DNA of 63,981 nt, filler included, from an uncultured bacterium (GTDB lineage: Bacteria > CAYJOG01), in assembly GCA_964371695.1 (NCBI GenBank). It is 7 parts of 7 records of this genome, joined end to end, with 100 filler letters (N's around TTAATTAATTAA, not from the genome) between each part and the next. Parts side by side here need not be neighbours in the genome. Positions count along the whole stretch, not along the records: positions 36,953 to 45,949 come from CAYJOG010000082.1; 6 more parts are not named here. One strand, written 5' to 3'. The position numbers were made by a program, and so were the translations under genes. Shown here piece after piece: positions 6,019 through 61,076 of the stretch (the stretch's first letter is position 1; the number at the start of each line of letters is the position of its first letter). Below the pieces are notes generated by a model, which ran no database searches, was not told where the DNA came from, and saw only the letters and a program-made list of their open reading frames with translations.

Positions 6019-6254
6019 AGCGGGATCATGGGTTTGGCTTCATCCTGGGCCAGAGGCCATGGATGGCCGATTCCGCCGCCGGTTCAGCGTGGCTGGTGCT
6101 GGTCCAAAAGGGGACTTTTTATTTCGAGGTAAAAAATGGCAGATGTTTTTCTGGGTTTGGCTGGACCGTGCGGCGTTGTTCGCAAGGTTTCACGGATGAA
6201 ACCGGCGAACCAAACATAAGCGGGGTGGTTTGTGATGGTTCGTATTCAAGGTAA
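6015..6254 (+). other. 79-codon bridge ORF across a family C repeat between thiDN and anmK
   Basis: GTG overlaps the thiDN stop (GTGA); stop lies ~20 nt inside the anmK start; same frame as the 34370-34678 ORF (GQRPWMA.SAAG, VRRC.QGF.DETGEP). Confidence 0.45.
6047..6224. repeat. Family C palindromic element, copy 1
   Basis: Hairpins GGCCATGGATGGCC and GGTTTCACGGATGAAACC shared with 34378-34629; partial copy at ~52113-52216. Confidence 0.8.
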
Positions 6255-7485: not shown

Positions 7486-7509
7486 GTGCGGTGGGGACAC
7501 CGCACCTAC
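7486..7509 (-). repeat. GTAG-type REP (empty allele of the 60543-60624 REP)
   Basis: GTAG-GTGCGGTG-TCCC-CACCGCAC on the minus strand. Confidence 0.75.
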
Positions 7510-7565
7510 TCCTCATTTTTAACCAAATGAACCACTATTTCCGAAAATGCCTTATGGGTGGCTGA

Positions 7566-9305: not shown

Positions 9306-9359
9306 GAGCCTGTCCAAAGTGGGCCATGTTTCACATAACCCACTTTTCAAACAGGCTCT
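9306..9359. mobile_element. ~55-bp mini-element with GAGCCTGT...ACAGGCTC ends
   Basis: Reverse complement aligns with 39396-39450 (shared ends and ATGTGAAACATGG centre). Confidence 0.7.
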
Positions 9360-9524
9360 TTGGGGAGAGGGTGGTCCGTAGGACCGGGTAATGGGCGCGG
9401 GAGGTCTTTTGGGGTTGCGGCAGCATATTGATGCTGCCGGGCGCGCCCAGCGGCACGACAGTGCCGGGGTAAAACATAAGTAGAAAATCAAAAAACAGTG
9501 GTTTTTTGCTTTTTTTTTTTTAAA

Positions 9525-9756
9525 CCCCTCTCCCCAACCCTCTCCCCATTAAAGGGGAGAGGGGGCCGGGGATGCATCCCGGTGGATAACCCGAACCCAA
9601 AGGACGTAAGAACGTCATGCGTTCAGGATTTCCCGTTTGAAAATCAGGGGTGATTAACCCCCTCTCCCCTGCTGGGGAGAGGGTTGGGGTGAGGGGTAAA
9701 ACATAAACATAAAACCTTTTTGGTTTTGTCGGGCTTCCCGCCTGCGCGGGAATGAC
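9525..9756. repeat. CCCTCTCCC-n-GGGAGAGGG palindrome pair (family D) plus a TTCCC-N8-GGGAAT hairpin
   Basis: Inverted copies at ~9525-9565 and ~9658-9697; family recurs at ~15257, 15648, 15736, 22540, 22628, 27785, 37950, 42964, 43111, 48726. Confidence 0.85.
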
Positions 9757-9782: not shown

Positions 9783-11591
9783 TTACTTCCCCGGCGCACG
9801 TTTGAGGATGGAGACGAACGCCTCCTGCGGAATCTCCACCTTGCCGATCTGCTTCATGCGCTTTTTGCCTTCCTTCTGTTTTTCCAGCAGTTTGCGTTTG
9901 CGGGTGATGTCGCCGCCATAACACTTGGCGGTCACGTTCTTGCCCATGGCCTTGATGGTTTCGCGGGCCACGATTTTGCCGCCGATGGCCGCCTGCACGG
10001 GAATCACGAACATGTGGCGCGGAATCACGTCTTTCAGCCGCTCCACCAGTTCCTTGCCCCGGTCGTGGGCCTTGCTGCGATGCACCATCATGCTCAGCGC
10101 GTCCACCGGCTCGGCGTTCAGCAGAATGTCCATCTTCACGATGTCCGAATCCTGCTCGCCGTCCAGGGTGTAATCCATGCTGGCATAACCCTTGCTCTGG
10201 CTTTTGAGCTGGTCGAAAAAGTCGAAGATGATTTCGCCCAGGGGCAGACGGCAGTGGATGTTCACCCGACCGCCCTCCAGGTGCTCCATGTCGTGATATT
10301 CACCCCGGCGGCTGGTGATGAGTTCCATCATGGGGCCGATGTAATCGGCGGGCACAATGATGTCCACCTTCACCATGGGTTCAAAAATGCTCTCGATGCG
10401 GCTGCGGTCGGGCAACAGCGCCGGGTTGTCCACCCGTTTTTCCACGCCGTCGGTCATCACCACGCGATACACCACGCTGGGGGCCGTCACAATCAGCCCC
10501 AGGTTATATTCCCGTTCCAGGCGCTCCTGCACGATTTCCAGATGCAACAGCCCCAGAAAACCGCAGCGATAACCAAACCCCAGGGCCTGGCTGCTTTCGG
10601 GTTCATACACCAGGGCGGCGTCGTTCAGCGCGTATTTCTCCAGGCTGTCCTTGAGTTTGTGAATGTCTTCACCGTCAATGGGATACAACCCGGCGAACAC
10701 AAAAGGTTTCAGCTTGCGATAACCGGGCAACGGGTCGGGGGCGGGGTGGGCGCGGTGGGTGATGGTGTCGCCCACGGCCACGTCCTTGATGGACTTGATG
10801 CTGGCCACAAAATAACCCGTCTCGCCGGGGCCGAGTTCCGCCTGAGAGGTGGGGGCGGGGCAGAACACCCCCGTGTCCACTACCTCGTGCACACGCCCGC
10901 TGTGAAAACACTTGATGCGATCACCCTTTTTCATCACGCCGCTCTTGATGCGCACATAGGGAATCACGCCCTTGTAGCTGTCGTAGTTGCTGTCAAAAAT
11001 CAGCGCCCGCAGAAAATCGTCCTTGGGCGGCTTGGGGGCGGGAATGCGCTCCACCACGGCGTGCAGGATTTCTGTCACACCCACGCCCGTGCGGGCGCTG
11101 CACAGCAACACGTCTTCTTCGTCGCAGCCCAGCAGGTCACACACCATGTTGCGCACCCGCTCCACTTCTGCGCCGGGCAGGTCAATCTTGTTGAGCACCG
11201 GCACAATTTCCAGGCCGTTTTCGATGGCGAGGTATAGGTTGGAGAGGGGCTGCGCCTCAATGCCCTGGCTGGCGTCCACCACCAGCACCGCGCCCTCGCA
11301 GGCCGCCATGCTGCGGCTCACCTCATAGGTGAAATCCACATGCCCCGGCGTGTCAATCAGGTTGAGCACATGGGGCTGGCCCCCGTGTTCAAACTTCATG
11401 CGCACCGCCTGCAACTTGATGGTGATGCCCCGCTCGCGCTCAAGATCCAGCGTGTCCAGGGTCTGCTCCTTGAGCTTGGACTTCTCAATGGTGCCCGTCA
11501 GTTCCAGAAACCTGTCCGCCAGCGTGGTCTTGCCGTGATCAATGTGGGCAATGATGCAGAAATTGCGTATATCTCCCAGAACCAAGCTCAT
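9783..11591 (-). CDS. lepA: Elongation factor 4 (LepA)
   Basis: [72 protein letters not shown] 11591 is 9 nt after TACACT. Confidence 0.98.
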
Positions 11592-11637
11592 CGGGGGGGG
11601 AGTGTAAACGATTCCCTCATTGCTGTTAGGTTTATTT

Positions 11638-11774
11638 GTAGCCCCGGCGTCCCGTCGGGAGCAAAAAACGCCGAAGGCGTCACCCAATAGGTTTTTTCGG
11701 GGAAATATGAAGATAAATCTGAATGGTGCGCGCCTGCGGCGCGCTTGAAACTCCCGGCGGGACGCCGGTGCTAC
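11638..11774. repeat. REPIN-like pair of inverted GTAG REPs
   Basis: GTAGCCCCGGCGTCCCGTCGGGAG ... CTCCCGGCGGGACGCCGGTGCTAC. Confidence 0.8.
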
Positions 11775-11875
11775 TTCAAAAATCCTTGATAATCTGAGAG
11801 CCTGCGCAGGCTCTGACAGCAATGGGCGATTCCCCCCTCCTGTCCATGCTGCGGAGCTGCGCTACCATGGCGGCC

Positions 11876-15247: not shown

Positions 15248-15860
15248 GTGGAAAATGCCCTCTCCCTGAGGGAGAGGGCAAGAAAAAAGCCCTTATTTTG
15301 TCTACAGCTACTCCGAAAATGCTCTAATACCAATGAACATTCAAAATAGCAGGAATGTTCATTGGTTTTATTGGCCTTGCCATTCGTCGTGAATGGCTAC
15401 GGCCCGGCGCGGCGCAGGCAAAGCCCGCTTGCGCCGCGAACACCTCCGGCCCTGTCTGGGCCTCGGTGTTCGAGCCGAATTCATCCATGAATTCATACCA
15501 ATTTTCACCAAACCGTCTGAATTCGCAGCACCCGTTTCCAAACTGGTTCATCGCTCAGAATTAATGTTGTTTTGGTTGAAAATTGGTATAAAGAATTTCC
15601 GGAATTAATGGAGCAGGCATCCGAAGCTGACACAGGGCAATGTCCACCCCCTCTCCCCTTGAGGGAGAGGGTTGGGGTGAGGGGTTTATTCAAAAGCAAA
15701 AAAAACCAAGCAAGGTTTTCGTTTTTTGTTTGAACCCCTCACCCGGATGGATTGGCCAAAAAGGTCCAATCCATCCGACCTCTCCCTCAAGGGGAGAGGT
15801 GAAGGACCGCCCTACTTTTTGCTCTACCATTTCCGAAAATGCTCTGGGGAGAGGGCAAAA
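15248..15860. repeat. Repeat cluster: family A copy 2 (core 15371-15503) and family D palindromes
   Basis: Core 129/133 identical to 817-949; flanked by hairpin cassettes bounded by ATACCAAT...ATTGGT(A/T)T; CCGAAAATGCTCT ends at ~15313 and ~15833. Confidence 0.85.
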
Positions 15861-25653: not shown

Positions 25654-25677
25654 CGGCGACGGGGGCGTCGCCGCTAC
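25654..25677 (-). repeat. GTAG REP between convergent genes
   Basis: GTAG-CGGCGACG-CCCC-CGTCGCCG. Confidence 0.7.
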
Positions 25678-25719
25678 TCGGAGGGGATGTTGGTGGGGCG
25701 CTTTGAGAAATGGGTGTTT

Positions 25720-28654: not shown

Positions 28655-28739
28655 GGGCCAGTATAACCAGCCGGAAAAAAGGCTGGCAGAGCGCATTCTC
28701 ATGGCGTCGGGACGGCCTCTCACCGAATGAGGTTTAAAC

Positions 28740-28762
28740 GGCGGTGAGGACACCGCCGCTAC
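28740..28762 (-). repeat. GTAG REP
   Basis: GTAG-CGGCGGTG-TCCT-CACCGCC. Confidence 0.7.
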
Positions 28763-28819
28763 TCTTTATCCAAGCCGGGTGAACCTGCCCGGCCGCCTCT
28801 GAAAAAAAGGCCGAGGTTT

Positions 28820-33489: not shown

Positions 33490-34377
33490 GTGCCGTTTGT
33501 GATTTTGTCCAAGCCCGGTGTGGGGGAGACCCTGCGGCGGGTGTTGCCTCTGACCGTGGGGCTTGTGCTGATGGTTTCTCCGGCCAGGGCCGAGGAAAAC
33601 GCCGACTGGGTGGCCGGGCGCGCCGAACAGGACTTCGCCCGTGTGGCCGAGGCGCTGCTGCGCCTGCCGGAATCCACCGTGCTGTCTCTGAGTCACGACA
33701 CCGACGCGCTGGAAAAACTCATCCAGCAACTCAAAAACCAGCCGGGGGGGCAAAAGACTTTTCTCACCCTGCCGTTTGCCGCGCCCAAAACGGGCACTTG
33801 GTTTGTGGTGCAGGGGCAACTGGACCTGGTGAGCCACCGCAAGGGCACCAGCAACGCCTGGGCGTGGGATCTCGTGCTGAAAAACGCCGCAGGCCAGCAG
33901 ACCGACCCGGTCAAAAGCGGCAACGAGGCGCACTTTTGCTGGAACCAGCCGGTGCTGGCCCCCGCCCCCGGCGCGGTGCTGAAGGTGGAAAACAGCAAGC
34001 CCGATCACGCCCCCAGCGCCGTGCCCAAAGATGGTGGCAATTTTGTGATTCTGGACCACCTCAACGGCGAGGCCACGGCGCTGTGGCATTTCAAGCAGGG
34101 CAGCGTGGTGGTCAAACCGGGCGACCGTGTGCGGCGGGGCGACATGTTGGGGGCCTGTGGCAACAGCGGCAACAGCCTGTTCCCGCACATTCACATGCAA
34201 CTGGACAAACTGGACCCGGTCACCGGCCAGCGCACCGCCGCCCCCGCTGTGCTGGGCATTTACCGCCGGGGCAAAACGGGCGAGACCCTGGAGCGCCACC
34301 GCGTGGCCAAAAGGGGCGAGTTTCTCGCGCCCTTTTCGCTTACGCCCGCGCTGCCTGTTGGGGTGAGCGGTGATTGA
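33490..34377 (+). CDS. M23 family metallopeptidase, exported
   Basis: Signal peptide; H..AWD, GNFVILDH, H...GS..VKPGDRV, GNSGNSLFPHIH. Confidence 0.85.
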   Translation: MPFVILSKPGVGETLRRVLPLTVGLVLMVSPARAEENADWVAGRAEQDFARVAEALLRLPESTVLSLSHDTDALEKLIQQLKNQPGGQKTFLTLPFAAPKTGTWFVVQGQLDLVSHRKGTSNAWAWDLVLKNAAGQQTDPVKSGNEAHFCWNQPVLAPAPGAVLKVENSKPDHAPSAVPKDGGNFVILDHLNGEATALWHFKQGSVVVKPGDRVRRGDMLGACGNSGNSLFPHIHMQLDKLDPVTGQRTAAPAVLGIYRRGKTGETLERHRVAKRGEFLAPFSLTPALPVGVSGD

Positions 34378-34678
34378 TACCATTTCCCAACCAAAAGTGC
34401 GACAACCCCGGCCCCTTGGCGACACCCATGGCCAGAGGCCATGGATGGCCGTTTCCGCCGCCGGGCCAGAGTGGTCGGTGTTCATCCAAAGGGTTGGGGC
34501 TGGTCAAAAAACCATGATGAGCAAACGGTTTCCAGGGCTGGTCTGGCCCGTGCGGCGTTGTTTGCAAGGTTTCAAGGATGAAACCGGCGAACCAGAAAAC
34601 ATAAGCCGGGCAGGCCTCCTGTTTGTCTTGCCCTTTTCGCTTGCGCCCGCGCTGCCTGTTGGGGTGAGCGGTGATTGA
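34329..34678 (+). repeat. 49-bp direct repeat (34329-34377 / 34630-34678) flanking family C element copy 2
   Basis: GCCCTTTTCGCTT(A/G)CGCCCGCGCTGCCTGTTGGGGTGAGCGGTGATTGA twice with one mismatch, 301 bp apart. Confidence 0.92.
34370..34678 (+). other. 102-codon bridge ORF between the M23 and GT2 genes
   Basis: Starts at the duplicated GT2 start (GTGATTGA) and ends with the duplicated M23 C-terminus PFSL.PALPVGVSGD*. Confidence 0.5.
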
Positions 34679-38441: not shown

Positions 38442-39380
38442 TTATCCCACCGGAAACAGTTTCTTCAGCAACTCACCCGCGCCGTCATAGGGCGTTGTTT
38501 TGCCCGCCGCCACCGCCGCGGTCAGGGGCGCCGCCGGGCCGTTCAGCAACGCCTCGCGGCGCGTCTCCCAGGCTTCGTTCAGAAAAAGCCGCGTGAGCGA
38601 AAGCCTGCGGTCGCCCTCTACGGTTTCGCGCTGGCCAGACGTGTCCAGCCATCCGCCGTGTTTTTGCACCAGCGCCCAAAAGTCGGTCACGCCCTGGCCG
38701 GTCAGGCTGTTCACCAGGGCCACGGGCACGGCCCAGCCGCCGCTGGCGGGCAACTGGTGCAGTTCATTCTGCACCTGCAAAAAAAGCTCCCGTGCGCCGG
38801 GCATGTCGGCCTTGTTCACCACAAACAGGTCCGCCAGTTCAATGATGCCCGCCTTCATGAACTGGATGGTGTCGCCATAGCCGGGCACCAGCACCACCAC
38901 GGTGGTGTGGGCCGCCTGACGCACATCGGCCCCCAACTGGCCCATGCCCACCGTCTCCAGCAGCACCACGTCAAAACCCAGCCACTCAAACACTTCCAGG
39001 CCGCCCCGGGCCGCCTTGCTCAGGCCCCCCAGGCTTTCTTTGCTGGCGTAACTGCGAATGAAAACGCCGTCGTCCAGACCGGCGCTGGTCATGCGGATGC
39101 GGTCGCCCAATATGCTGCCGCCGCTGAAGGGGCTGGTGGGGTCCACCGCCACCACGGCCACGGTTTTTTTCTGGCCGCGCAGGTGGCGGATGAGCTGATC
39201 CAGAAACGTGCTTTTGCCCGCGCCGGGCGGCCCGGTCACGCCCAGCACCAGTGAGCGTTTCTTTTTCAGCCCCAGGTCGCCCAGGCGGGAGAGGTCCGAT
39301 TCCACGGCGCTCAGCAACTTGCCGATGGCCCGCTTGTCCATCTTTTTTGCGCTGGCGATGAGGCTTTTGTCCAGGGCCAT
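38442..39380 (-). CDS. meaB: Second MeaB/ArgK family GTPase
   Basis: GVTGPPGAGKST, VDPTSPFSGGSILGDRIRM, ETVG.GQ, PGYGDTIQFMKAGIIELAD, NKAD. Confidence 0.93.
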   Translation of the reverse strand: MALDKSLIASAKKMDKRAIGKLLSAVESDLSRLGDLGLKKKRSLVLGVTGPPGAGKSTFLDQLIRHLRGQKKTVAVVAVDPTSPFSGGSILGDRIRMTSAGLDDGVFIRSYASKESLGGLSKAARGGLEVFEWLGFDVVLLETVGMGQLGADVRQAAHTTVVVLVPGYGDTIQFMKAGIIELADLFVVNKADMPGARELFLQVQNELHQLPASGGWAVPVALVNSLTGQGVTDFWALVQKHGGWLDTSGQRETVEGDRRLSLTRLFLNEAWETRREALLNGPAAPLTAAVAAGKTTPYDGAGELLKKLFPVG

Positions 39381-39395
39381 GGGGGGCCAAGTATA

Positions 39396-39637
39396 AGAGC
39401 CTGTTTTAAAATTGCGCCATGTGAAACATGGTGTGATTTGAACAGGCTCTTGCGGTCATGAGTTTGCGAGGAGTCTTTCCAGATGCCCATTGGGGCATCT
39501 GGCCGAGCAAAGGCGATAGCGACCGTACCCGAAAGCCGAAACTTTAAAAAAGTTGAGGTTTTCGCCACGCCGAGGGGGCTTTGCCCCTGAAGGCGTTGGG
39601 TTTGAAAAGTCCACGATGGACTTTTCAAACAGGTTCT
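39396..39637. mobile_element. Composite MITE-like element: 55-bp cassette plus hairpin carrying the 60-nt module
   Basis: AGAGCCTGTTT left end, AAACAGGTTCT right end, internal AACAGGCTCT. Confidence 0.7.
39461..39520. repeat. 60-nt module B, copy 1
   Basis: AGTTTGCGAGGAGTCTTTCCAGATGCCCATTGGGGCATCTGGCCGAGCAAAGGCGATAGC, identical at 52139-52198 and 60551-60610. Confidence 0.95.
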
Positions 39638-39665: not shown

Positions 39666-40985
39666 TTAAACCTTGTCCAGATGACCCGCCGCAATCAGTT
39701 CGCGCACCTCGCCAAACTCGCTGTCGTCCATGGCCGAAAAATTGACCATGAACTTGGTGGCGTCGTCCAGTTCATGCACGTAACTTTCAAAGGTGTCGTA
39801 ATTGCCCAGCACTTTGTCTTTCACCACGTGGAACATGTCCGTGCCCGGATAAGCCGTGGCCATGAACATGTTCCGGTTGCCCAGGTCGTGCTCCATGATG
39901 AACTGCGCCGTGTTGCGCAACTGCTCGCGGGTCTCACCGGGATAACCGGCGATCCAGGTGCAGTTGGGGTGAATGCCGGCGGCCTTGGTATCGCGGATGG
40001 CCCGGTGCATCTGGTCGGGCGTGATTTTTTTCCGCATGGCCAGGAGCGTGCCGGGGTCGGCGCTTTCTGCGCCATAACCGATGTAAACGCAGCCTGCGTC
40101 GGACATGAGTTCCAGGGTTTCGGGGTCGGCTTCGTCCAGCCTGCCGTGGCAGCCCCACTTGATGTTCATGGCCTTGAAAATGGGGTGCAATGCCTTGATG
40201 CGTTTTTTGCTCACCATGAAGTTGTCATCCACAAACCCCATGAAATCGATGTCATATTTTTCGATGAGCAGGCGCACTTCTTCGGCCACGTTTTCGGCGC
40301 TGCGAAAGCGGTAGTTGCGCCCGCCCGTCATGTTGCGGTCGCAAAAGGTGCAGGCAAAAGGGCAGCCCCGGCTGGAGACGGTGTTGGCCGAGCGGTGCAT
40401 TTCAAAAGGCGTGACGGAGCTGTTCTGGGCCGCCTTGCCCCACACCGGGCTGGCAAGGTAGGTTTCCATGTCCACCAAGTGCCACGCCGGAAAGGGCAGG
40501 TCGTCCAGCCCCCGTACAATGGTGCCCCCATAAGACTTGCGGGGCCGCTGGCCCCCCAGGCCCAGTCGGGCGTCTTCCACGATGTTGAAAATCTCGTCGT
40601 CGCCTTCGCCGGTGCAAACGGCGTCAATCTCCGGCGCCCAGTCCATGAGCATGTCTTTCAGGTCGGTGGCCAGGCCGCCGCCAGAGACAAGGTAGGTGTC
40701 CGGCATGTGTTTTCGAAACATTTTGGCCAGAGGTTTTTGCCATTTGTAAGTGGTGATGAGGCCGCTGAAGGCGACGACATCCCACTGGCCCAGGCTCGCC
40801 ACCACTTCGTCGAGTTGCTCCAGTGTGAGTTGGGGGCGGTGGAGGTTAAGGTCCAGTATCTGTGTTTCGATGCCCTTGGTTTCCAGGTTGGCGGCCATCA
40901 GGGCGGGGCCAAGGGGCAGGTTGTTGGGGGGGGCCGTGGCCCGGATGGGCATATTGACAAAAAGGACTCTGACATCTTTTTTCAC
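39666..40985 (-). CDS. Cobalamin-binding radical SAM protein (class B methyltransferase-like)
   Basis: N-terminal B12 domain (PLG, D.V..GEG); SRGCPFACTFC; FVDDNF; GAES; GYPGET; YPGT. Confidence 0.92.
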   Translation of the reverse strand: MKKDVRVLFVNMPIRATAPPNNLPLGPALMAANLETKGIETQILDLNLHRPQLTLEQLDEVVASLGQWDVVAFSGLITTYKWQKPLAKMFRKHMPDTYLVSGGGLATDLKDMLMDWAPEIDAVCTGEGDDEIFNIVEDARLGLGGQRPRKSYGGTIVRGLDDLPFPAWHLVDMETYLASPVWGKAAQNSSVTPFEMHRSANTVSSRGCPFACTFCDRNMTGGRNYRFRSAENVAEEVRLLIEKYDIDFMGFVDDNFMVSKKRIKALHPIFKAMNIKWGCHGRLDEADPETLELMSDAGCVYIGYGAESADPGTLLAMRKKITPDQMHRAIRDTKAAGIHPNCTWIAGYPGETREQLRNTAQFIMEHDLGNRNMFMATAYPGTDMFHVVKDKVLGNYDTFESYVHELDDATKFMVNFSAMDDSEFGEVRELIAAGHLDKV

Positions 40986-46360: not shown

Positions 46361-46436
46361 TGGCTCCCCGGACTGGACTCGAACCAGTGACCTATTGGTT
46401 AACAGCCAACCGCTCTACCAACTGAGCTACCGAGGA
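46361..46436 (-). tRNA. tRNA-Asn(GTT)
   Basis: TCCTCGGTAGCTCAGTTGGTAGAGCGGTTGGCTGTTAACCAATAGGTCACTGGTTCGAGTCCAGTCCGGGGAGCCA: 76-nt cloverleaf with encoded CCA. Confidence 0.98.
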
Positions 46437-48566: not shown

Positions 48567-48772
48567 GTAGCGGTGACACCCCCGTCGCCATTGGATTGAA
48601 GGAAATTCAAGTGTTTTTGACCCTTCTGGAGTAGGCGCGGTGTCCTCACCGCGCTTTAAATTAACGGCGATGAGGACATCGCCGCTACTCCTGTATGCAA
48701 ACATTGTAAATATGCTCTAATTGAACCCCTCACCCGGCCCTTCGGGCCACCCGCTCCCCTTGATGGGGATAG
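48567..48772. repeat. REP cluster (three GTAG REPs plus a family D hairpin) between argJ and argB
   Basis: GTAG REPs at 48567-48589, 48631-48654 and 48666-48688 (inverted); CCCCTCACCCGGCC at ~48726. Confidence 0.8.
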
Positions 48773-51545: not shown

Positions 51546-51983
51546 TTACGCCTGAGCCCGTTTCTCGGTGCCCGTGATCTGTGCCGTGTGCCTGGGTTCT
51601 GGACCAGTGTAGACCTTGAGGTGCTTAAAAATACGATTGCCCAGCTTGTTTTTGGGCAACATGCCCTTCACGGCGGCCTCAATGGCCCGTTCGGGATATT
51701 TGTCCAGCCGCTCGCGCAGGGTTTCGGTTTTCAACCCGCCGGGGCGGCCACTGTGACGGTAATAGACTTTTTCTTCGAGCTTGCGGCCGGTGACCTTGAT
51801 TTTTTCGGCGTTGGTGACCACCACAAAAATGCCCATGTCCACGTCGGGGGTGTAGTCCGGCAGGTGCTTGCCCCGCAGCAGCGTGGCCACCTGCACGGCG
51901 AATCGCCCCAGTGTCTGGCCGCTGGCGTCCAGATGCACCCAGGTTTCCGGCCTGTCGTTAAATTTTGCCCGTGTGGTTTTCAT
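51546..51983 (-). CDS. rplM: 50S ribosomal protein L13
   Basis: [47 protein letters not shown]. Confidence 0.98.
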
Positions 51984-52112
51984 CACCTTGCTCCTTGCAA
52001 AAAGCCCCTGTGTTTCCAGGGGGCCGCCATTATGAGAGCGCCTATTTTGAAAGTCAACCAGGGGCGGCAAGTCCCCCGGTTTGCCCCCTTGAGCAAATTG
52101 TCCGCCAAAGAG

Positions 52113-52216
52113 GGCGACACCCGGGGCCAGAGGCCATGAGTTTGCGAGGAGTCTTTCCAGATGCCCATTGGGGCATCTGGCCGAGCAAAGGCGATAGCGG
52201 CCGTTTCCGCCGCCGG
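52113..52216. repeat. Partial family C element carrying module B copy 2 (52139-52198)
   Basis: GGCCAGAGGCCATG-[60 nt]-GGCCGTTTCCGCCGCCGG versus the empty allele at ~34430-34464. Confidence 0.9.
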
Positions 52217-52432
52217 TGAAGCCTGGTGGGGGTCTGCCCAGAACGTTTCTCTCCCCATAAAACCCGGCTCAAAGCAGCCTTTTTTTGGGGTGGGCTGAGC
52301 CGTGCGGCGCTGTTCGGCAGTTTTCATGGAGGAAAACGCCGAACCAGGCAAAAAACCGGGCATGCTCTTTGCGCCCGTTACCCAAAACGCTTTCCCATCT
52401 TCACATATATCGGTGTTTGATATAGTGACACC

Positions 52433-53800
52433 ATGCGTTCCTCATTCATCCGTCAAACCCTTGTCAAAGGGCTGGTTCTGGCCGCTTTGGCCATGCTGCT
52501 GCCCTCTTCTCTTCTATTGGCTGCGCCCAGCAAAGAAGACGCGCAGTTGCAGGAGGCCGCCACCGCCGGTGACCTGAACGCCGCCATGGAGGCCCTCAAG
52601 GCCGGGGCCGACCTGGACACCCAGGACAAATGGGGCCGCACGCCCCTGCACAACGCGCTTTTCAGCCACCGCAAGGAGGTGGCCTATTACCTGATCGAAA
52701 AAGGCTCCAACCTCACGCTCAAAGACAAGGAATATGGCGGCACCCCCCTGCATTACGCCGCCATGATGGGCCTGAAAGACGTCACCCGCGCCCTGCTGGC
52801 CAAAAATCCCGACGTGTTCGCCAAGTCGGGCACGGGCTGGATTCCCCAACACTGGGCGGGCGTGTGGAAAGGCTGCTGCGAAGATTCCCTGCTGCAAGAG
52901 GCGGGCTGGGCGCACATCCTCACCCCCCACAACGACGAACTCGCAGACGACCTGCGGCGCGAAATCATCGAGCGCTACGACAAAGGCGACTTCGCCTGCT
53001 CATGCTCCTGCGGCCTGAAAACCAAACCGGTGTGGACCGAAAGCGGCTGTTGTGGCTATGAACGCACCAGCAAATGGGTGGATGACCGCGACATCACCGG
53101 GGCCAAACCCTGTGGCCGCTGCGCCGCAGACTGGCAAACCCGCACGGGCCGTTATGGCGACAGCCGCTGGTTGTATTCCCCCAATGGCGAGCCGCTGCGC
53201 CCCCTGGGCGTGGACGAAGGCAACCGCCTGCCGGGGCGGTTTTATGCCTATGGCGCGCCGTGGCACGACCCGGCCTATGGCGGCCCCGCCTGCGGCGCCT
53301 GCAACGGCGCGGCGCCAGCCAACAACCCCATGGGTTATGCGTGCAGCAAGGGCATGGGCTGCGGGCTGGACGGAAAATATGGCAATTCCAGCGCAATGTC
53401 CGGGCCGTTTTGCGGCTGGGGCGGCGATGCGCTCAAAGGCCAGGGCGGATGCGGCTGGTCGTGGCAGGGCAAGGACGTGGGCACGCTGCGCGACGGCAAA
53501 ATCGCCCCGCCCTGCGCCTATCAGCGGGGTTTTGAGCCAGCCAGCGGCGCACCCTGCGCAATGGCCGAGCCGCCCCACAGCCCGGCCCGTCCCCACCTGA
53601 GTTGCAACGTCACGCCCTACGCCGACGGCGACGCGCTTTATGTCGAGCCGGTGTGCTGCCTGCAAACCGGCGACGACGGCAAGGTCTACCGCCACATCAA
53701 GGTGTGGCAATACCGCCCCCACACCCACCGCGACGCCAACGGCGACCTCTTCACCCACACCCACCCGTTCTTCTCAGAGATACGGCTGGAGGTGAAGTGA
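52433..53800 (+). CDS. Exported ankyrin-repeat protein with a Cys/Gly/Trp-rich C-terminal region
   Basis: Signal peptide; GRTPLHNA and GGTPLHYAA repeats; about 20 Cys downstream. Confidence 0.85.
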   Translation: MRSSFIRQTLVKGLVLAALAMLLPSSLLLAAPSKEDAQLQEAATAGDLNAAMEALKAGADLDTQDKWGRTPLHNALFSHRKEVAYYLIEKGSNLTLKDKEYGGTPLHYAAMMGLKDVTRALLAKNPDVFAKSGTGWIPQHWAGVWKGCCEDSLLQEAGWAHILTPHNDELADDLRREIIERYDKGDFACSCSCGLKTKPVWTESGCCGYERTSKWVDDRDITGAKPCGRCAADWQTRTGRYGDSRWLYSPNGEPLRPLGVDEGNRLPGRFYAYGAPWHDPAYGGPACGACNGAAPANNPMGYACSKGMGCGLDGKYGNSSAMSGPFCGWGGDALKGQGGCGWSWQGKDVGTLRDGKIAPPCAYQRGFEPASGAPCAMAEPPHSPARPHLSCNVTPYADGDALYVEPVCCLQTGDDGKVYRHIKVWQYRPHTHRDANGDLFTHTHPFFSEIRLEVK

Positions 53801-53923: not shown

Positions 53924-54859
53924 ATGGCCAGCTTGGTACTTGATCTTCAAAAAATGGCGTGCGACGGAAACGTCTCCGTCTCTGAGTTGTTGAGACACGC
54001 GATCGTGGTCGCAAAAAAAACTGGTTCAGTTGAAATCGAATCTTGGCTCAAAAATGAGTCCGATGGATACAAACGGTTCGAAGATATTCCAGAATACAGA
54101 ATATTGAATGCAAAACCGTACATGGTAGATGAACGTAATTCGAACTTAAAAACACTTTTGGATTGCGATGACCAAGACCTGATGAAAAAACTAATTATTC
54201 ATCCACGTTTTGATTCAATTTCTTGCCTGGAGAAAGTTTCGACTGATTTGAAAGGGCCTATTGCATCATTTCAACCCCCTCTTCACAACGAAAAAATCCT
54301 AAGACTGATATTTAAAAGCGACAGACCCATAAACTTTTCTTTTGAAACGCCCAGTATTGAGATTACTGGCATCTTTAACAAAGTGCGGAACCTGATTCTG
54401 AACTGGGGGCTTGAACTTGAAGAAGAAGGCGTGCGTGGCGAGAACTGGAGTTTTTCAGGTAAGGAAAAAGAACTGTCAAAACAGGCTTCAATCACAATTA
54501 TAAATAATTATACCGTGACGATTCATAGCTCATCCGAGTCCGCCATTCAGATCGGTTCCAATGGGGCGCATCAAAATTTTTACTGCAATAAAGATAAAGG
54601 GTTAAAAATATTGCTTGACTTGAAAAACTTTTTTAACAACTCAGATGTGTCGGATGAAATAAAAAATGAAGCCCAGAGCCTGATTGATGAATTAAAAACA
54701 GAAATTTCTTCATCCACATTAACCAACACCAAGTTGGGTGACTTTATGTCCAAAATCAAAACCATCGGCTCAAAAGCTGCCCAAAAAACGCTGGATATTG
54801 GTTTAAACCTCTTGCTGCAACAACTGGCGGCTGCTTTGATAAGTCAAATGCCAGGTTGA
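53924..54859 (+). CDS. AbiTii-domain protein (putative anti-phage), low GC
   Basis: SLVLDLQ...VSVSELLR.A.VVA.K.....W...E..GY.....PEYR matches the AbiTii pattern as I recall it; conspicuously AT-rich. Confidence 0.75.
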   Translation: MASLVLDLQKMACDGNVSVSELLRHAIVVAKKTGSVEIESWLKNESDGYKRFEDIPEYRILNAKPYMVDERNSNLKTLLDCDDQDLMKKLIIHPRFDSISCLEKVSTDLKGPIASFQPPLHNEKILRLIFKSDRPINFSFETPSIEITGIFNKVRNLILNWGLELEEEGVRGENWSFSGKEKELSKQASITIINNYTVTIHSSSESAIQIGSNGAHQNFYCNKDKGLKILLDLKNFFNNSDVSDEIKNEAQSLIDELKTEISSSTLTNTKLGDFMSKIKTIGSKAAQKTLDIGLNLLLQQLAAALISQMPG

Positions 54860-57454: not shown

Positions 57455-58500
57455 GGTGCAAAAACCGGTGGCGGCAGAGGGGGATTGTAACCAATCTTTT
57501 TCCNNNNNNNNNNGACCAGCAATGGCCCCCCCGCCGCGCCGGTGACGATGGCCTCGGCGGCGGTGGCGGTGAGCGTGACGCCTTGCGCGGCGGCGGGAAT
57601 CACCAGCGCCTGCCAGGGCAGCAGGGTAAACCCCCCGCCCAGGCCGTTTTCCACACGGGCCGAACCCCGCGACAGCACCACCACCCGCAGGGTGTGGGGC
57701 GTGGGGGGGGCTGTCCAGCGGCCGTGCAGCATCAGTTTTTCGATGCGATAGGCGGGTTTTTCCAGCAGCGTGACGTGGGTGCCCCAGGGGGCGCTGCACA
57801 GGTGGCGGGCCGCCTCGGCGGCGCTGTGCAGGGGTGGGGGAGGGGTTTCGCTCAGGGCCGCCAGGGCCTGCTGGGTGTGCAGGGGTCGGGGGCGGCCATG
57901 GTCATAAAGCCGCCACGTCACGTCCGAGGGTTCCTGCACTTCCAGCACCGTCACGCCGCCCAGAATGGCGTGAACGGTGCCGGGGGGAACGTCCACCGTG
58001 TCGCCGGCAAACACCTCTTCGCGCCGCAGCAGGTTTTCAAGGCCCCGTTGTTTCAGGGCTTGGGAAAGGTCGTCCCGGGTCACGCCGGGGGCCAGACCGC
58101 GATATATGCCGCCGGGCGCGCCTTCGGGCGTGGTGCGCAGAATCACCCAGCTTTCTTCTTTGCCCTGGCCGGGGGCCTGGGCCTGAGAAGGATGCACCTG
58201 CACGCTCAGCGGCTCGCGGGCGTCGATAATCTTGATGAGCAGGGGCAGGGGGCCTTCGCCAAAAGCCGTTCCCCCCAGTCCTTCACCCCAGGCTTGGCGC
58301 AACCGGGCCATGGTGTGGCCCGCCAGAGGCCCCGCCGCCACGGTGGATTGATGCTGCTCCAGGTCGGCCACCAGCCAGGCTTCGCCCCAGGGCTCGCCGT
58401 TTTGGGGGGTCTCTCCCAGCGCCGAGAGATGATGCCCCCCCCAGGGTTTGGCCAACATCAGCGGCTGACACAAAAAAGCATGGGGTGGCGCGGTGGCCAT
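57451..58500 (-). CDS. manA: Type I mannose-6-phosphate isomerase (10-N gap at 57504-57513; 3' end uncertain)
   Basis: KPWGG, GEAW, PLLIKIIDA...LSVQVHP, KEESW, GTVHA, EVQEPSDVTWRLYD. Confidence 0.9.
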   Translation of the reverse strand: MATAPPHAFLCQPLMLAKPWGGHHLSALGETPQNGEPWGEAWLVADLEQHQSTVAAGPLAGHTMARLRQAWGEGLGGTAFGEGPLPLLIKIIDAREPLSVQVHPSQAQAPGQGKEESWVILRTTPEGAPGGIYRGLAPGVTRDDLSQALKQRGLENLLRREEVFAGDTVDVPPGTVHAILGGVTVLEVQEPSDVTWRLYDHGRPRPLHTQQALAALSETPPPPLHSAAEAARHLCSAPWGTHVTLLEKPAYRIEKLMLHGRWTAPPTPHTLRVVVLSRGSARVENGLGGGFTLLPWQALVIPAAAQGVTLTATAAEAIVTGAAGGPLLVXXXXKKIGYNPPLPPPVFAP

Positions 58501-58609
58501 GGGCCGCGACATTGTAGAAGGCGTGGGCTCAAGAACATGCACCTGGGCGGACATGGCTTCAATATCGGCGTTTTGCGCCGTGGTGTTGACAGGTTTTTAC
58601 AATGCCTTG

Positions 58610-60319
58610 GTGAAGCGGGCAGACAAAGCCATGGCAGGGTGGGGCATGTTGGCCCTGCTGGCGTTGTTGTGGGCCATGCCGGTGCGGGCGAACGCCGAGG
58701 ACCCCTACCGCCCCCATCGTGCTGCCGCCCTGGGAGACCTGCGCAAGCTGGAGGCCCTGGTGCTGGCGGGGGCAGGTGTGGATTTGCAGTATGAAGAGGG
58801 GAACACGGCGGTGATCTGGGCGGCGCGCAACGGCCACGCCCACGTGGTGGAGTGGCTGGCCCAGCGGGGGGCCAGTCTGTTTCTGCGAGACCGTGACGGC
58901 AACACGGCCCTGGACTGGGCGGCTTTTCTGGGCCACGAAAAAGTGGTGGCAAAACTGGTGGACGCCGCCCCGCTGGACGCACAGGACGCCCAGGGCCGCA
59001 CCCCTCTGCATGAGGCCAGCCAGGGGGGGCACGCGGGTGTGGCCCGGCTGCTTATCAACTTTGGCGCGGCGGCAGACCTGCCCGATCAGGATGGCGACAC
59101 GCCCCTGCACTACGCCGCGAACGAGGCCGTGGCCCGTGTGCTGCTGAGCGCCTCTGCGCCGGTGAACGCCCGCAACAACGACGGCCTCACACCCCTGGCG
59201 CTGGTGGCGTGGGAGGGCAATCTGCCGCTGGCCCAGGTGTTGCTGGAAAACGGCGCAGAGGTGAACCAGGGCGACGACGCCGGTGAAACGCCCCTGCACA
59301 AGGCCATCCGGGCGGGACAGATGGACATGGCTGGCCTGCTGCTGCGCCACGGGGCCATGGCGGGCGCGCCCGACGACTTTGGTGAGTCTCCTCTTGAAGA
59401 AGCCGCGAGTCTGGGCCGGGAGAACCTGTCGGGCTTGCTGCTGGGTCTGGGGGTGAGTCCCGACACCCGCACGATGACCGGCCGCACGCCACTGATGAGC
59501 GCCGCCGCCGAGGGGCGTCTGCCCGTGGCGCTGCAACTGCTGGGGGCGGGGGCAGACCTGAGCGCCACCGACGGGTTGGGTTTCAGCGCCCTGCATCTGG
59601 CGGTGTCTGGCGGACACGGGGTCATGACGGCGCTGCTGCTCAAACAGGGCGCGCCGGTGAATCAGTTAAGCCAGGAAGGGCTGAGTGCCCTGCATTTTGC
59701 GGCGGCGGCGGGGGCCTTGAGCCTGAGCGAACTGTTGCTGTCGGCGGGGGCCAGTCCGTCGCCCGTGGACAATCAGCAGCGCACGCCACTGGGTCTGGCG
59801 GTGCGCTCCGGCCACGTGGCCCTGGCGAAAATTTTGCGCCAGCGGGGGGGGCGGGCCACCACTGCGGAACTCACCGCTGGTTTGCTCGAGGCCGTGATGG
59901 TGAACAATCCCCAGCACCTCAAAACTTTGGTGGCCTTTGGGGCAGACGTGAAAACCCTCTCGTCCAGCCTGCCCGCGCCGGTGGTTCTGGCGTCTGGCTC
60001 AAACCCGGCCCTGCCCGCCGTGGCCACGGGTTATGGACCGCTACACCTGGCCGCGTGGCTGAAGCGGCCCGCGCTGGTGCGGGTGTTGCTCAACCTGGGG
60101 GCAGACCCCAATCAGGCGGCCAGCGTGTTTGGTGATTGCCAGAGTTGCACGCCGCTGCACCTCGCGGCCCTGACAGGAGACGAAACCACGGCGTGGACGC
60201 TGATGGAAAAAGGCGCGAACCCCCAGTTGACCAATGCCCAGGGCCATACACCGGCGGTGCTGGCGCGGTCAAAAGGATTTTCCATGTTGGCCGAAAGGCT
60301 TGCGGGGCCAGTGCGGTGA
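58610..60319 (+). CDS. Exported long ankyrin-repeat protein (~14-15 repeats)
   Basis: Signal peptide; many G.T(P/A)LH.AA..G repeats; GTG 6 nt after TACAAT. Confidence 0.93.
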   Translation: MKRADKAMAGWGMLALLALLWAMPVRANAEDPYRPHRAAALGDLRKLEALVLAGAGVDLQYEEGNTAVIWAARNGHAHVVEWLAQRGASLFLRDRDGNTALDWAAFLGHEKVVAKLVDAAPLDAQDAQGRTPLHEASQGGHAGVARLLINFGAAADLPDQDGDTPLHYAANEAVARVLLSASAPVNARNNDGLTPLALVAWEGNLPLAQVLLENGAEVNQGDDAGETPLHKAIRAGQMDMAGLLLRHGAMAGAPDDFGESPLEEAASLGRENLSGLLLGLGVSPDTRTMTGRTPLMSAAAEGRLPVALQLLGAGADLSATDGLGFSALHLAVSGGHGVMTALLLKQGAPVNQLSQEGLSALHFAAAAGALSLSELLLSAGASPSPVDNQQRTPLGLAVRSGHVALAKILRQRGGRATTAELTAGLLEAVMVNNPQHLKTLVAFGADVKTLSSSLPAPVVLASGSNPALPAVATGYGPLHLAAWLKRPALVRVLLNLGADPNQAASVFGDCQSCTPLHLAALTGDETTAWTLMEKGANPQLTNAQGHTPAVLARSKGFSMLAERLAGPVR

Positions 60320-60404
60320 GCTGGAGACCGGAGGCTTGATGTTGGCGTTTGGAAGCTGGAGATTGGAAGTCGGTGAAAGAAAAAGGCCCCTCCTCGTTTC
60401 AGGC

Positions 60405-60432
60405 CATCATTCCCGCTTTCGGGGGAATGATG
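60405..60432. repeat. ATTCCC-N8-GGGAAT palindrome (dRS3-like)
   Basis: CATCATTCCC-GCTTTCGG-GGGAATGATG; related hairpin at ~9735-9756. Confidence 0.6.
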
Positions 60433-60510
60433 GCGGGGGAGGCGATGGGGTCTTTTCTTTAGCAGGCTGTTGATAAACACCCTGTTGGTGGTTCATCCAA
60501 TTTGAAATGA

Positions 60511-60624
60511 GTAGCAGCGATGTCCCCATCGCTGCCTTATTTGGTGCGGTAGTTTGCGAGGAGTCTTTCCAGATGCCCATTGGGGCATCTGGCCGAGCAA
60601 AGGCGATAGCGACACCGCACCTAC
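60511..60624. repeat. Inverted GTAG REP pair; second REP carries module B copy 3 (60551-60610)
   Basis: GTAGCAGCGATGTCCCCATCGCTGC ... GGTGCGGT-[60 nt]-GACACCGCACCTAC. Confidence 0.9.
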
Positions 60625-60715
60625 TCTTCATTTTGAAACAGAAAACCACGCGTGCGGTCGTGGCCCATTTGTTTTGGTGCATCACAGGTTTTTGCCAACT
60701 GGACCAGGAGGGCAC

Positions 60716-60751
60716 AAAAAAAAGGCTTCGCCGAAGCGAAGCCTTTTTTTT
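60716..60751 (-). terminator. Intrinsic (potentially bidirectional) terminator
   Basis: A-tract-GGCTTCG-CCGAAG-CGAAGCC-T-tract just downstream of the histone-like gene. Confidence 0.85.
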
Positions 60752-60776
60752 GAAAGCTGCCAATCGGCAGACACCC

Positions 60777-61076
60777 TTATTTTTTCTTGGCGGGAGCCTT
60801 TTTGGCCACGGTGGCTTTTTTCACCGGGGCCGCCTTTTTGGCGGCAGCGGCGGCCTTGGCAGGCGCCGCTTTTTTCGCCGCAGGTTTCGCGGCTACTTTT
60901 TTGGCCGCAGGTTTGGCGGCGGCCTTGGGAGCCGCTTTTTTCGCCGCAGGTTTCGCGGCGGCTTTTTTCACTGCGGGTTTGGCGGCGGCCTTGGGAGCCG
61001 CTTTTTTCGCTGCAGGTTTCGCAGCGGCTTTCTTCGGAGCCGCTTTTTTAGCGGCGGGTTTTTTTGCAATTGCCAT
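60777..61076 (-). CDS. Histone H1-like Ala/Lys/Pro-rich protein
   Basis: 99 aa made almost entirely of KPAAKKAAP repeats; SD-like GGGGG upstream and terminator downstream. Confidence 0.85.
   Translation of the reverse strand: MAIAKKPAAKKAAPKKAAAKPAAKKAAPKAAAKPAVKKAAAKPAAKKAAPKAAAKPAAKKVAAKPAAKKAAPAKAAAAAKKAAPVKKATVAKKAPAKKK

Follow-up and report, generated by a model that had tools for sequence, protein, structure and literature searches.

How does one and the same hairpin, 60 nucleotides (nt) long and identical at every base, come to lie inside palindromic repeats of different sequence, and what could have placed it there? The question is raised by a 63,981-nt stretch of DNA (hereafter the window) from an uncultured bacterium (GCA_964371695.1, lineage CAYJOG01), which comprises seven pieces of ~9 kb joined through N44-TTAATTAATTAA-N44 spacers and has a G+C content of 60.6%. 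A scan of the window finds the 60-mer (hereafter the module) three times with 0 mismatches, at 39461, 52139 and 60551 and always on the + strand, with no fourth match in the window at ≤3 mismatches, 0 matches in 100 shuffles, and no partial or diverged copy in the window by local blastn at word size 7. This exact scan agrees with the initial annotation of the sequence, which had reported 60/60 identity at the three positions and had assigned them to three contigs, correctly so because the window consists of seven joined contigs. The copies, whose hosts are repetitive extragenic palindromes (REPs) of two families that we call REP-A and REP-B, are as follows.

39461-39520, + strand: module copy 1, exact match, between a B12-radical-SAM gene (39666-40985, − strand) and meaB (38442-39380, − strand)
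52139-52198, + strand: module copy 2, exact match, in REP-B, between rplM (51546-52070, − strand) and an ankyrin gene (52433-53800, + strand)
60551-60610, + strand: module copy 3, exact match, in a REP-A hairpin between convergent genes, one for an ankyrin protein (58493-60319, + strand) and a Lys/Ala-rich open reading frame (ORF; 60777-61076, − strand)
60569-60592, likewise 39479-39502 and 52157-52180, + strand: apical hairpin at module positions 19-42, a 10-bp stem with loop ATTG by fold prediction

Folded on its own, the module reaches −15.4 kcal/mol (z −4.05; 0/200 shuffles fold as well) and builds two tiers, a 5-bp basal stem (TTTGC/GCAAA) and, beyond an asymmetric internal loop, a 10-bp apical stem (CCAGATGCCC/GGGCATCTGG) capped by the loop ATTG, a calculation that bears out the perfect 10-bp stem read earlier from the sequence. 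Its edges are sharp: when the three loci are aligned, no base is common to the flanks on the left, and the right side shares one further G only. Terminal inverted repeats are lacking, as the module ends AGTTTGCG and GCGATAGC are not inverted repeats, and no direct repeat that could mark a target duplication stands beside any of the three copies; both features had also been described as missing, and both are absent at 3/3 copies.

What surrounds the module is itself palindromic, and both filled and empty host elements are found in the window.

60543-60626, + strand: filled REP-A, consisting of GGTGCGGT (60543-60550), the module, GAC, ACCGCACC (60614-60621) and the tail CTACTC (60621-60626)
60509-60535, + strand: partner REP-A, inverted, with tag GAGTAG, 9-bp stem and loop TCCC, forming a REPIN-like doublet with 60543-60626
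7486-7511, + strand: empty REP-A (stem of 8 bp, loop GGGA, tail CTACTC), resembling the right flank of copy 3 on its 3' side (85% over 40 nt)
48629-48691, + strand: empty REP-A doublet, REPIN-like, between argJ and argB, folding as one unit (−26.6 kcal/mol, z −8.45)
28739-28764, + strand: empty single REP-A
25654-25679, + strand: empty single REP-A, loop GGGG
52113-52361, + strand: REP-B with copy 2, ~190 nt without the module; ATG and the module lie between GGCC (52132-52135) and GGCC (52199-52202)
6036-6228, + strand: empty REP-B, GGCCATG-GAT-GGCC at 6055-6068
34418-34611, + strand: empty REP-B, GGCCATG-GAT-GGCC at 34437-34450
39452-39526, + strand: host hairpin of copy 1 by fold prediction, pairing GCGGTC (39452-39457) with GACCGT (39521-39526, one G-T pair), with ATG to the left of the module
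39393-39449, + strand: REP-C, palindromic repeat of 57 nt that adjoins the copy-1 host hairpin on its left; second copy at 9306-9362

GTAG-type REPs carry GTAG at one end, beside a stem of 6-9 bp with a short loop (PMC3733652), and a REPIN consists of two inverted REPs separated by a short spacer (PMC3337134). REP-A, with its tag GAGTAG (complement CTACTC) and 8-bp stem, is of this kind: GTAG stands directly beside the stem in 7/7 units of the window, a short loop of 4 nt (RGGR) closes the six empty units, and in the single filled unit the module takes the position of the loop. Four of the seven units pair into two inverted doublets (48629-48691 and 60509-60626), each of them two inverted REPs around a short spacer. 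One of the three REP-B elements in the window is filled.

Each copy had been placed at the apex of a different host hairpin. Nesting can be clearly seen at copy 3, fairly well at copy 1 and only weakly at copy 2, and the hosts are of two types rather than three, since copies 1 and 2 have a 78-nt unit in common (95% identity, family D4) and the host of copy 1 is therefore of REP-B type. The flanks complement each other across the junctions of copies 1, 2 and 3 by 5, 4 and 8 Watson-Crick pairs, for which 200,000 random junctions of the window give P(≥k) of 0.036, 0.108 and 0.0027; copy 3 thus has a strong enclosing stem and copy 1 a moderate one, and that of copy 2 is by itself not significant. 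In folds of copy 3 (the doublet at −37.7 kcal/mol, z −7.85) and of copy 1, the host stem encloses the module.

The empty forms at 6055, 34437 and 7486 exist as first described, though as paralogues and not as the same loci emptied, and they fit the replacement of about three nucleotides: where the filled elements have the module, the empty paralogues have GAT (REP-B) or GGG (REP-A at 7486, GTGCGGT-GGG-GACACCGCAC). Within each family the position of the junction is constant, with GCGGT to the left and GA to the right in REP-A, and CCATG to the left and GGCC to the right in REP-B.

Does the arrangement extend beyond one draft assembly? Contigs of four public runs from three studies (X1, X4, X5 and X8, with 42, 10, 69 and 5 contigs, respectively) were aligned to 60320-60790. 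The public runs listed for the locus are sediment metagenomes, with no RNA data set among them, and X5 is a groundwater run from a separate study. Depth over the module is 349-677 against 4.3-5.2 over the unique flanks in X1, 23-33 against 2-4 in X4, and 1912-2335 against 0-7.5 in X5, where the flank is mostly missing; X8 contains the module as well, and overall it stands at ~10-140 times the depth of the unique flanks in public contigs. Among the 24 of 55 loose ends listed, those of REP-A type join varied outer flanks to a constant left junction, GCGGT, and a constant right junction, GACACCGCACCTACTC, those of REP-B type join varied outer flanks to the constant junctions CCAGAGGCCATG (left) and GGCCGTTT (right), and both keep the orientation seen in the window throughout. 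Since the contigs diverge just beyond the constant junctions, REP-A and REP-B contexts must recur at many loci. In one REP-A context of X5 another 3' arm follows right after GACA, 4 nt from the junction, and stems therefore differ immediately beside an invariant module.

Across the four runs only two positions of the module carry variants at ≥5% of depth, module position 28 (60578, C>T) and module position 33 (60583, G>A), both in the apical stem. In each of the four runs the two changes are equally deep, and they are the sole two differences of one X8 contig (record 26). The two changes are compensatory: because they are linked, the apical C-G pair becomes T-A and pairing is kept. Together, these data show that the module is a dispersed, high-copy, very homogeneous and structure-constrained repeat, nested in one orientation in at least two palindrome families. 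In reference collections, exact scans gave 0 matches for the 60-mer in species-representative genome contigs, for a 26-nt core in metagenome and viral contigs, and for module nt 6-27 in metagenome contigs, and sensitive blastn of plasmids and phages gave no match to the module.

The module can also be followed into a relative through its translation. Its net size change of +57 is frame-neutral, and ORFs of 118-127 codons cross all three copies in one minus-strand frame; these three ORFs look spurious. A profile of the minus-frame-1 translation, run against 1.84 billion protein representatives, gave two matches. One, P0124, was rejected as an unrelated MGIWK repeat protein; the genuine one is the cluster P0125-P0127, encoded on contigs of 20-32 kb in other public assemblies. 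When the copy-2 ORF in minus frame 1 was used as query, a word-index protein search had 0 matches. The N-terminal flank of P0125-P0127 agrees with the translated right flank of copy 1 at 18/21 residues, both module arms are unchanged (18 arm codons, 0 changes), and the two loop-adjacent residues PM have become HW, the pair that a flipped apical loop would encode. The other flank is the translation of a second window repeat, D5, which makes up the C-terminal 130 residues of P0125 and directly adjoins the module in the relative. Judged from these translated alignments, the module is present at the copy-1 locus of a relative in which the surrounding repeats have been reshuffled. D5 itself spans 133 nt at 97% identity (817-949 and 15371-15503), the whole element at the second locus being read as ~15330-15560, and begins with a 14-bp hairpin.

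How, then, could such a unit spread? With a rough probability of 45%, we tentatively propose that the module is a very small non-autonomous dispersed repeat, derived from REP DNA and handled by REP-type machinery, that spreads as single-stranded DNA (ssDNA) through a hairpin-specific enzyme acting in trans. Descent from REP-type DNA is suggested by a parallel in layout: the module runs GGAGTC, TTT, hairpin, 9-nt spacer and GGCGATAGC, and a REP-A doublet runs GGAGTAG, hairpin, 11-nt spacer and GGCGATG..., with the module's 3' end GGCGATAGC aligning with REP-A 5' arms such as GGCGATGAG. In such a scheme the host hairpins would be extruded at the replication fork, and a trans-acting enzyme (RAYT-type HUH Y1, or another ssDNA nuclease) would open an extruded hairpin near its loop and join the module into the opened tip, the host stem thereby becoming the base of a longer, nested hairpin. 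The module's GGAGT plus hairpin, which resembles the tag plus hairpin of REP-A, would be a candidate recognition site. The copy number, sharp ends, nesting, fixed orientation and a stem conserved by compensation are observed. The enzyme and the single-stranded route we infer by analogy, namely with REP/REPIN elements and their RAYT enzymes (PMC3116915, PMC3337134), and with TnpA-REP, which in vitro acts on ssDNA only, requires GTAG and a hairpin and cuts nearby (PMC3333891). Precedents also exist in REPs lodged within small palindromes (PMC3733652) and in a small module carried in trans into REPs (PMC12288879).

Two further claims of the initial annotation bear on this proposal. That insertion follows structure rather than sequence is plausible, judged on three window copies and 24 of 55 loose ends, because neither the left flanks (CATG, CATG and CGGT) nor the right flanks contain a common motif. 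Of the claim that the element is recently spreading on REPs, the high copy number, homogeneity, nesting and single orientation are supported. The proposed check by filled/empty polymorphism gave a negative answer, with both forms of a single locus seen nowhere in the four runs: at copy 3 no contig of these runs, with contigs dropping rare variants, has that locus without the module, and the two joints found in contigs are paralogous empty REP doublets elsewhere. A candidate orthologous filled site exists at argJ-argB, where an X5 loose end matches window positions 48679-48708 at 27/30; as CTGTATAC, which follows the REP tail there, occurs again in another X5 context, only ~10 unique bases are left and the site is a hint only.

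Besides the missing empty allele at copy 3, several observations weigh against the proposed enzymatic spread. The tag beside the module's stem is GAGTC followed by TTT, with neither GTAG nor CGTC on either strand. The minimum-energy fold of copy 2 pairs GGCC-AGA-GGCC next to the module and leaves the enclosing stem, only 4 bp long, unused, and a few contexts in public contigs, including the X1 loose ends at 60552 and 60610, are without an obvious stem. The RAYT gene is usually flanked by REPs; no transposase, RAYT, IS200/IS605, IS110 or GIY-YIG protein is found among the 58 ORF translations of the window (18 compared with NCBIfam, 40 with Pfam). Finally, two features would also fit a recombinational origin: the last 9 nt of the module look like a REP-A 5' arm, and three nucleotides are replaced in both families at an offset from the loop that differs between them, which simple cut-and-join does not predict.

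These last two points lead to the best-placed alternative, which we consider possible but clearly less probable than enzymatic spread: no dedicated transposition at all, with a single illegitimate entry into each family, after which gene conversion or a switch of template from one REP copy to another at replication, using the REP arms as short homology, would spread the module and keep it uniform. Not only the replacement, rather than retention, of three host bases at family-specific offsets and the REP-A-like 3' end would follow, but also the fixed junction position in each family and the extreme uniformity of the copies; and the relative, with its loop flipped and both arms intact, displays a typical product of intrastrand template switching. 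Conversion is harder to reconcile with a module shared by two families whose flanks have almost no homology, or with the X5 context in which another 3' arm begins 4 nt from the junction, where the conversion tract would need to stop at the module edge. Amplification to ~10-140 times flank depth also appears high for a passive process, although we know of no benchmark for this comparison.

A stricter version of the enzymatic proposal, in which the module is a 60-nt ssDNA micro-transposon that recognises the shape of an extruded tip and not its sequence and is driven by a putative ssDNA nuclease/ligase, seems to us doubtful. To our knowledge, every mobile element whose enzyme is known is larger than this 60-nt unit. 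If it were true, nested hairpin modules would form a separate class of selfish DNA, living on REPs as REPs live on genomes.

Somewhat less likely again is that the module is mainly a selected motif, which either acts as a structured RNA domain or binds a protein of the nucleoid or RNA-binding kind; purifying selection rather than recent spread would then explain why the copies are uniform, and the manner of copying would be a separate matter. Such selection may coexist with spread by an ssDNA enzyme or by conversion. The pattern of constraint speaks for it: outside the pair 28/33 no variant reaches 5% in the four runs, and in the relative 3/21 residues of the copy-1 flank have changed versus 0/18 arm codons. 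The hairpin z-scores of −4.05 and −4.56 point the same way, as does the sequence AGGAG, 9 nt and ATG within the module (e.g., 39469-39485), which is open in 5/6 frames. Set against these are the absence of any Rfam match for the module and an inconsistent orientation to the neighbouring genes, with copy 1 antisense to both neighbours, copy 2 in a divergent spacer and copy 3 in a convergent one. The module is without a match at the gathering score in the window and at E ≤ 10 in 60400-60760, the nearest being wcaG (E 2.9), which is at chance level and overlaps only its last 5 nt. No promoter-like site is found at 60300-60800, and of the terminator-like hairpins listed for that region, which include the partner REP-A, all lie outside the module. 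The stems, moreover, are wholly Watson-Crick, so that no strand can be assigned.

We regard it as very unlikely that the module is a derivative resembling a MITE (a miniature transposable element with inverted repeats) and mobilised by a bridge-RNA-guided recombinase of the IS110 family, on the model of ssr9 and ISPpu9, where insertion is at a fixed dinucleotide within REPs. The family targets REPs without inverted repeats or long duplications (PMC1525189, PMC12288879), and the module begins with AG and has AG again at positions 58-59, which recalls the AG core at both ISPpu9 ends; yet the junction in empty sites is GGG or GAT and not AG, the REP-A and REP-B flanks have no common target sequence, no DEDD transposase appears among the ORFs scanned, and, by reasoning, a double-stranded circle of 60 bp is physically implausible. 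That the module arose artificially in assembly or library preparation, for example from a synthetic oligonucleotide or a repeat that was collapsed, might come to mind with a draft assembly of short contigs but can be practically dismissed, since the module stands in independently built contigs of four runs and three studies, with many contexts and natural variants, and predicted proteins in other public assemblies also cross it.

Is the arrangement then without precedent? The initial annotation, which knew of no named element like it, put this too strongly, for comparable nesting is in print (PMC3733652, PMC12288879). REPs lodged within other small palindromes, and REPs whose loops hold long inserts able to pair with themselves, are described for GTAG-23 of Thermomicrobium roseum, GTAG-15 of Anabaena and GTAG-14 of Bradyrhizobium; T. 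roseum has filled 'target' palindromes alongside hundreds of empty ones, and the REP-loop inserts pair over up to 27 bp (PMC3733652). As in the window, one palindromic repeat is centred in another and filled and empty forms coexist, whereas there the GTAG REP is the insert and a plain palindrome the host, and in the window it is the GTAG REP that receives an insert, a unit of 60 nt with another sequence that two host families have in common. The literature search for printed hairpin modules nested in REP loops gave only the papers cited; closer parallels may be listed in the tables that accompany PMC3733652 (REPs) and PMC12288879 (insertion sites).

Compared with REPs and REPINs as a class, the module is likewise short, intergenic, high-copy hairpin DNA, combines a tag-like GGAGT with a hairpin, has neither terminal inverted repeats nor duplications and would be expected to depend on an ssDNA enzyme, and its REP-A host has the GTAG, 8-bp stem and doublets of the class. 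It differs in a tag that is not GTAG, in 18-nt arms on each side of one hairpin, in the lack of any doublet seen, in lying inside other REPs rather than beside genes, and in the lack of a RAYT in the window; with no GTAG beside its stem, identity of the module itself as a GTAG REP was rejected. The small non-coding module ssr9 of ISPpu9 (IS110 family) in Pseudomonas putida, which carries the ends of the insertion sequence and is found alone inside REPs, is a further parallel; its authors propose copying by a transposase in trans and a selfish, MITE-like element (PMC12288879), and insertion sequences from five families are described as targeting REPs (PMC1525189). However, ssr9 has A' and B' boxes, a fixed AG core, one REP target and a known parent insertion sequence (PMC12288879), whereas the present module has no parent insertion sequence, no common target sequence and empty sites without AG. 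An ssr9-like IS110 insert was accordingly rejected on its differing host flanks and its GGG or GAT empty sites.

Miniature derivatives of IS200/IS605 are known as palindrome-associated transposable elements (PATEs). The module resembles this family, which transposes by strand-specific ssDNA 'peel and paste' (PMC3333891), in having no terminal inverted repeats and no duplication, with hairpins as recognition sites, but IS200/IS605 elements carry hairpins close to both ends and go in 3' of one fixed tetranucleotide, and a miniature of this type was rejected because the module has one central hairpin and left flanks CATG, CATG, CGGT and, in one X1 context, ACG. Assignment as a MITE was rejected for its lack of terminal inverted repeats and duplication, as an Rfam RNA family for want of a covariance-model match on the module, and as an integron attC site by eye, the R'/R'' core sites being absent. 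Closest in spirit seem the small dispersed repeats (SDR) of the cyanobacterium Nostoc punctiforme, reportedly described by Elhai et al. in 2008 as 21-27 nt long, with a hairpin fold and no target duplication, nested in other repeats and said to be mobile by an undefined mechanism; the present unit would differ from them in its 60 nt, its two-tier hairpin and its GC-rich uncultured lineage.

A last comparison concerns Ssn GIY-YIG single-strand nucleases, which recognise NTS/SRM hairpin repeats and for which loop identity is non-essential and loop extensions are tolerated in vitro (PMC11893778). The module is, like these, a high-copy hairpin repeat, but is without the NTS sequence, and NTS/SRM identity was rejected because the dRS3 matches at 60409-60428 and 9734-9753 (1 mismatch) lie outside it. 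The first of these matches belongs to a hairpin at 60405-60432 that has an 11-bp stem; repeats of the Neisseria type with this dRS3/NTS pattern are targets of Ssn nucleases.

What is new here is therefore not the nesting itself, already in print, but a 60-nt two-tier hairpin unit in two host families of an uncultured lineage, with compensatory and flip variants. REPs and REPINs are among the commonest bacterial repeats, and the building of REP mosaics is poorly understood. That two REP families share a unit with a compensated hairpin, which reaches tens to hundreds of copies, suggests that parasitism or recombination acts at hairpin tips as a second layer. If an enzyme drives it, a structure-directed ssDNA integrase would be of practical interest; if none does, template switching from hairpin to hairpin might amplify a sequence genome-wide. 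In practical terms, such repeats disrupt short-read assemblies and generate spurious ORFs.

The genome around the module is a mosaic of palindromic repeats. REP-B stands in intergenic DNA upstream of three unrelated genes (anmK, a glycosyltransferase gene and the ankyrin gene) and folds into a long-range stem and a terminal hairpin, in which pairing persists through double changes (a comparison of the two empty copies shows compensation at 6/52 predicted pairs); REP-B matches no Rfam family at E ≤ 1 and could, on the predicted fold, be a structured RNA or a larger mobile unit. The REP-B at 34418-34611 is flanked on both sides by a 58-nt direct repeat (93% identity, 34320-34377 and 34621-34678) that copies the 3' end of an M23-peptidase-like gene (33490-34377). 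REP-C contains an inner hairpin (CCATGTGAAACATGG); its two copies are 80% identical, and the contig with the second copy begins right at it, perhaps because assembly broke off at the repeat. A hairpin family of the form CCCTCTCCCC...GGGGAGAGGG has seven copies (9536, 15647, 22538, 22626, 42963, 43110 and 48748), and a 70-nt unit recurs at 15257, 15777 and 27785, the copy at 15257 containing ...CTACTCCGAAAATGCTCTA, a motif that recurs in loose ends of public contigs. Most loops read in REP-A and REP-B are NGGA (GGGA, AGGA, TGGA and CGGA), e.g., at 7494-7497, 48674-48677, 6060-6063 and 6169-6172; GGA within a hairpin loop is the binding motif of CsrA/RsmA.

The genes of the window are common bacterial housekeeping ones, with glyQS, thiD, anmK, lepA, murJ, pilQ, hisB, rpsB-tsf, argCJB-argD and rplM-rpsI, alongside two methylmalonyl-CoA mutase/MeaB sets and several ankyrin-repeat proteins. 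One of them was used to place the source organism.

9783-11822, − strand: lepA; the ORF as listed has ~80 extra N-terminal residues, and the record on file is 602 aa

Its own record aside, LepA has no relative above 63% identity among candidates scored out of 5.8 billion proteins, and in species-representative genomes the best among the matches listed, which come from many phyla, reaches 62%; by the measure of this protein the source is an uncultured, deep-branching bacterium, since LepA relatives reach only 62-63% identity. In an Rfam scan of the window at the gathering score the sole match is a tRNA (46364-46436). Close to copy 3, a repeat of 27-nt period (60862-61059) codes for a Lys/Ala/Pro-rich, histone-H1-like protein on the minus strand (60777-61076) that has no NCBIfam match, and downstream of the ankyrin gene adjoining copy 2 lies a gene for an AbiTii-domain protein of the abortive-infection family (53924-54859, + strand).

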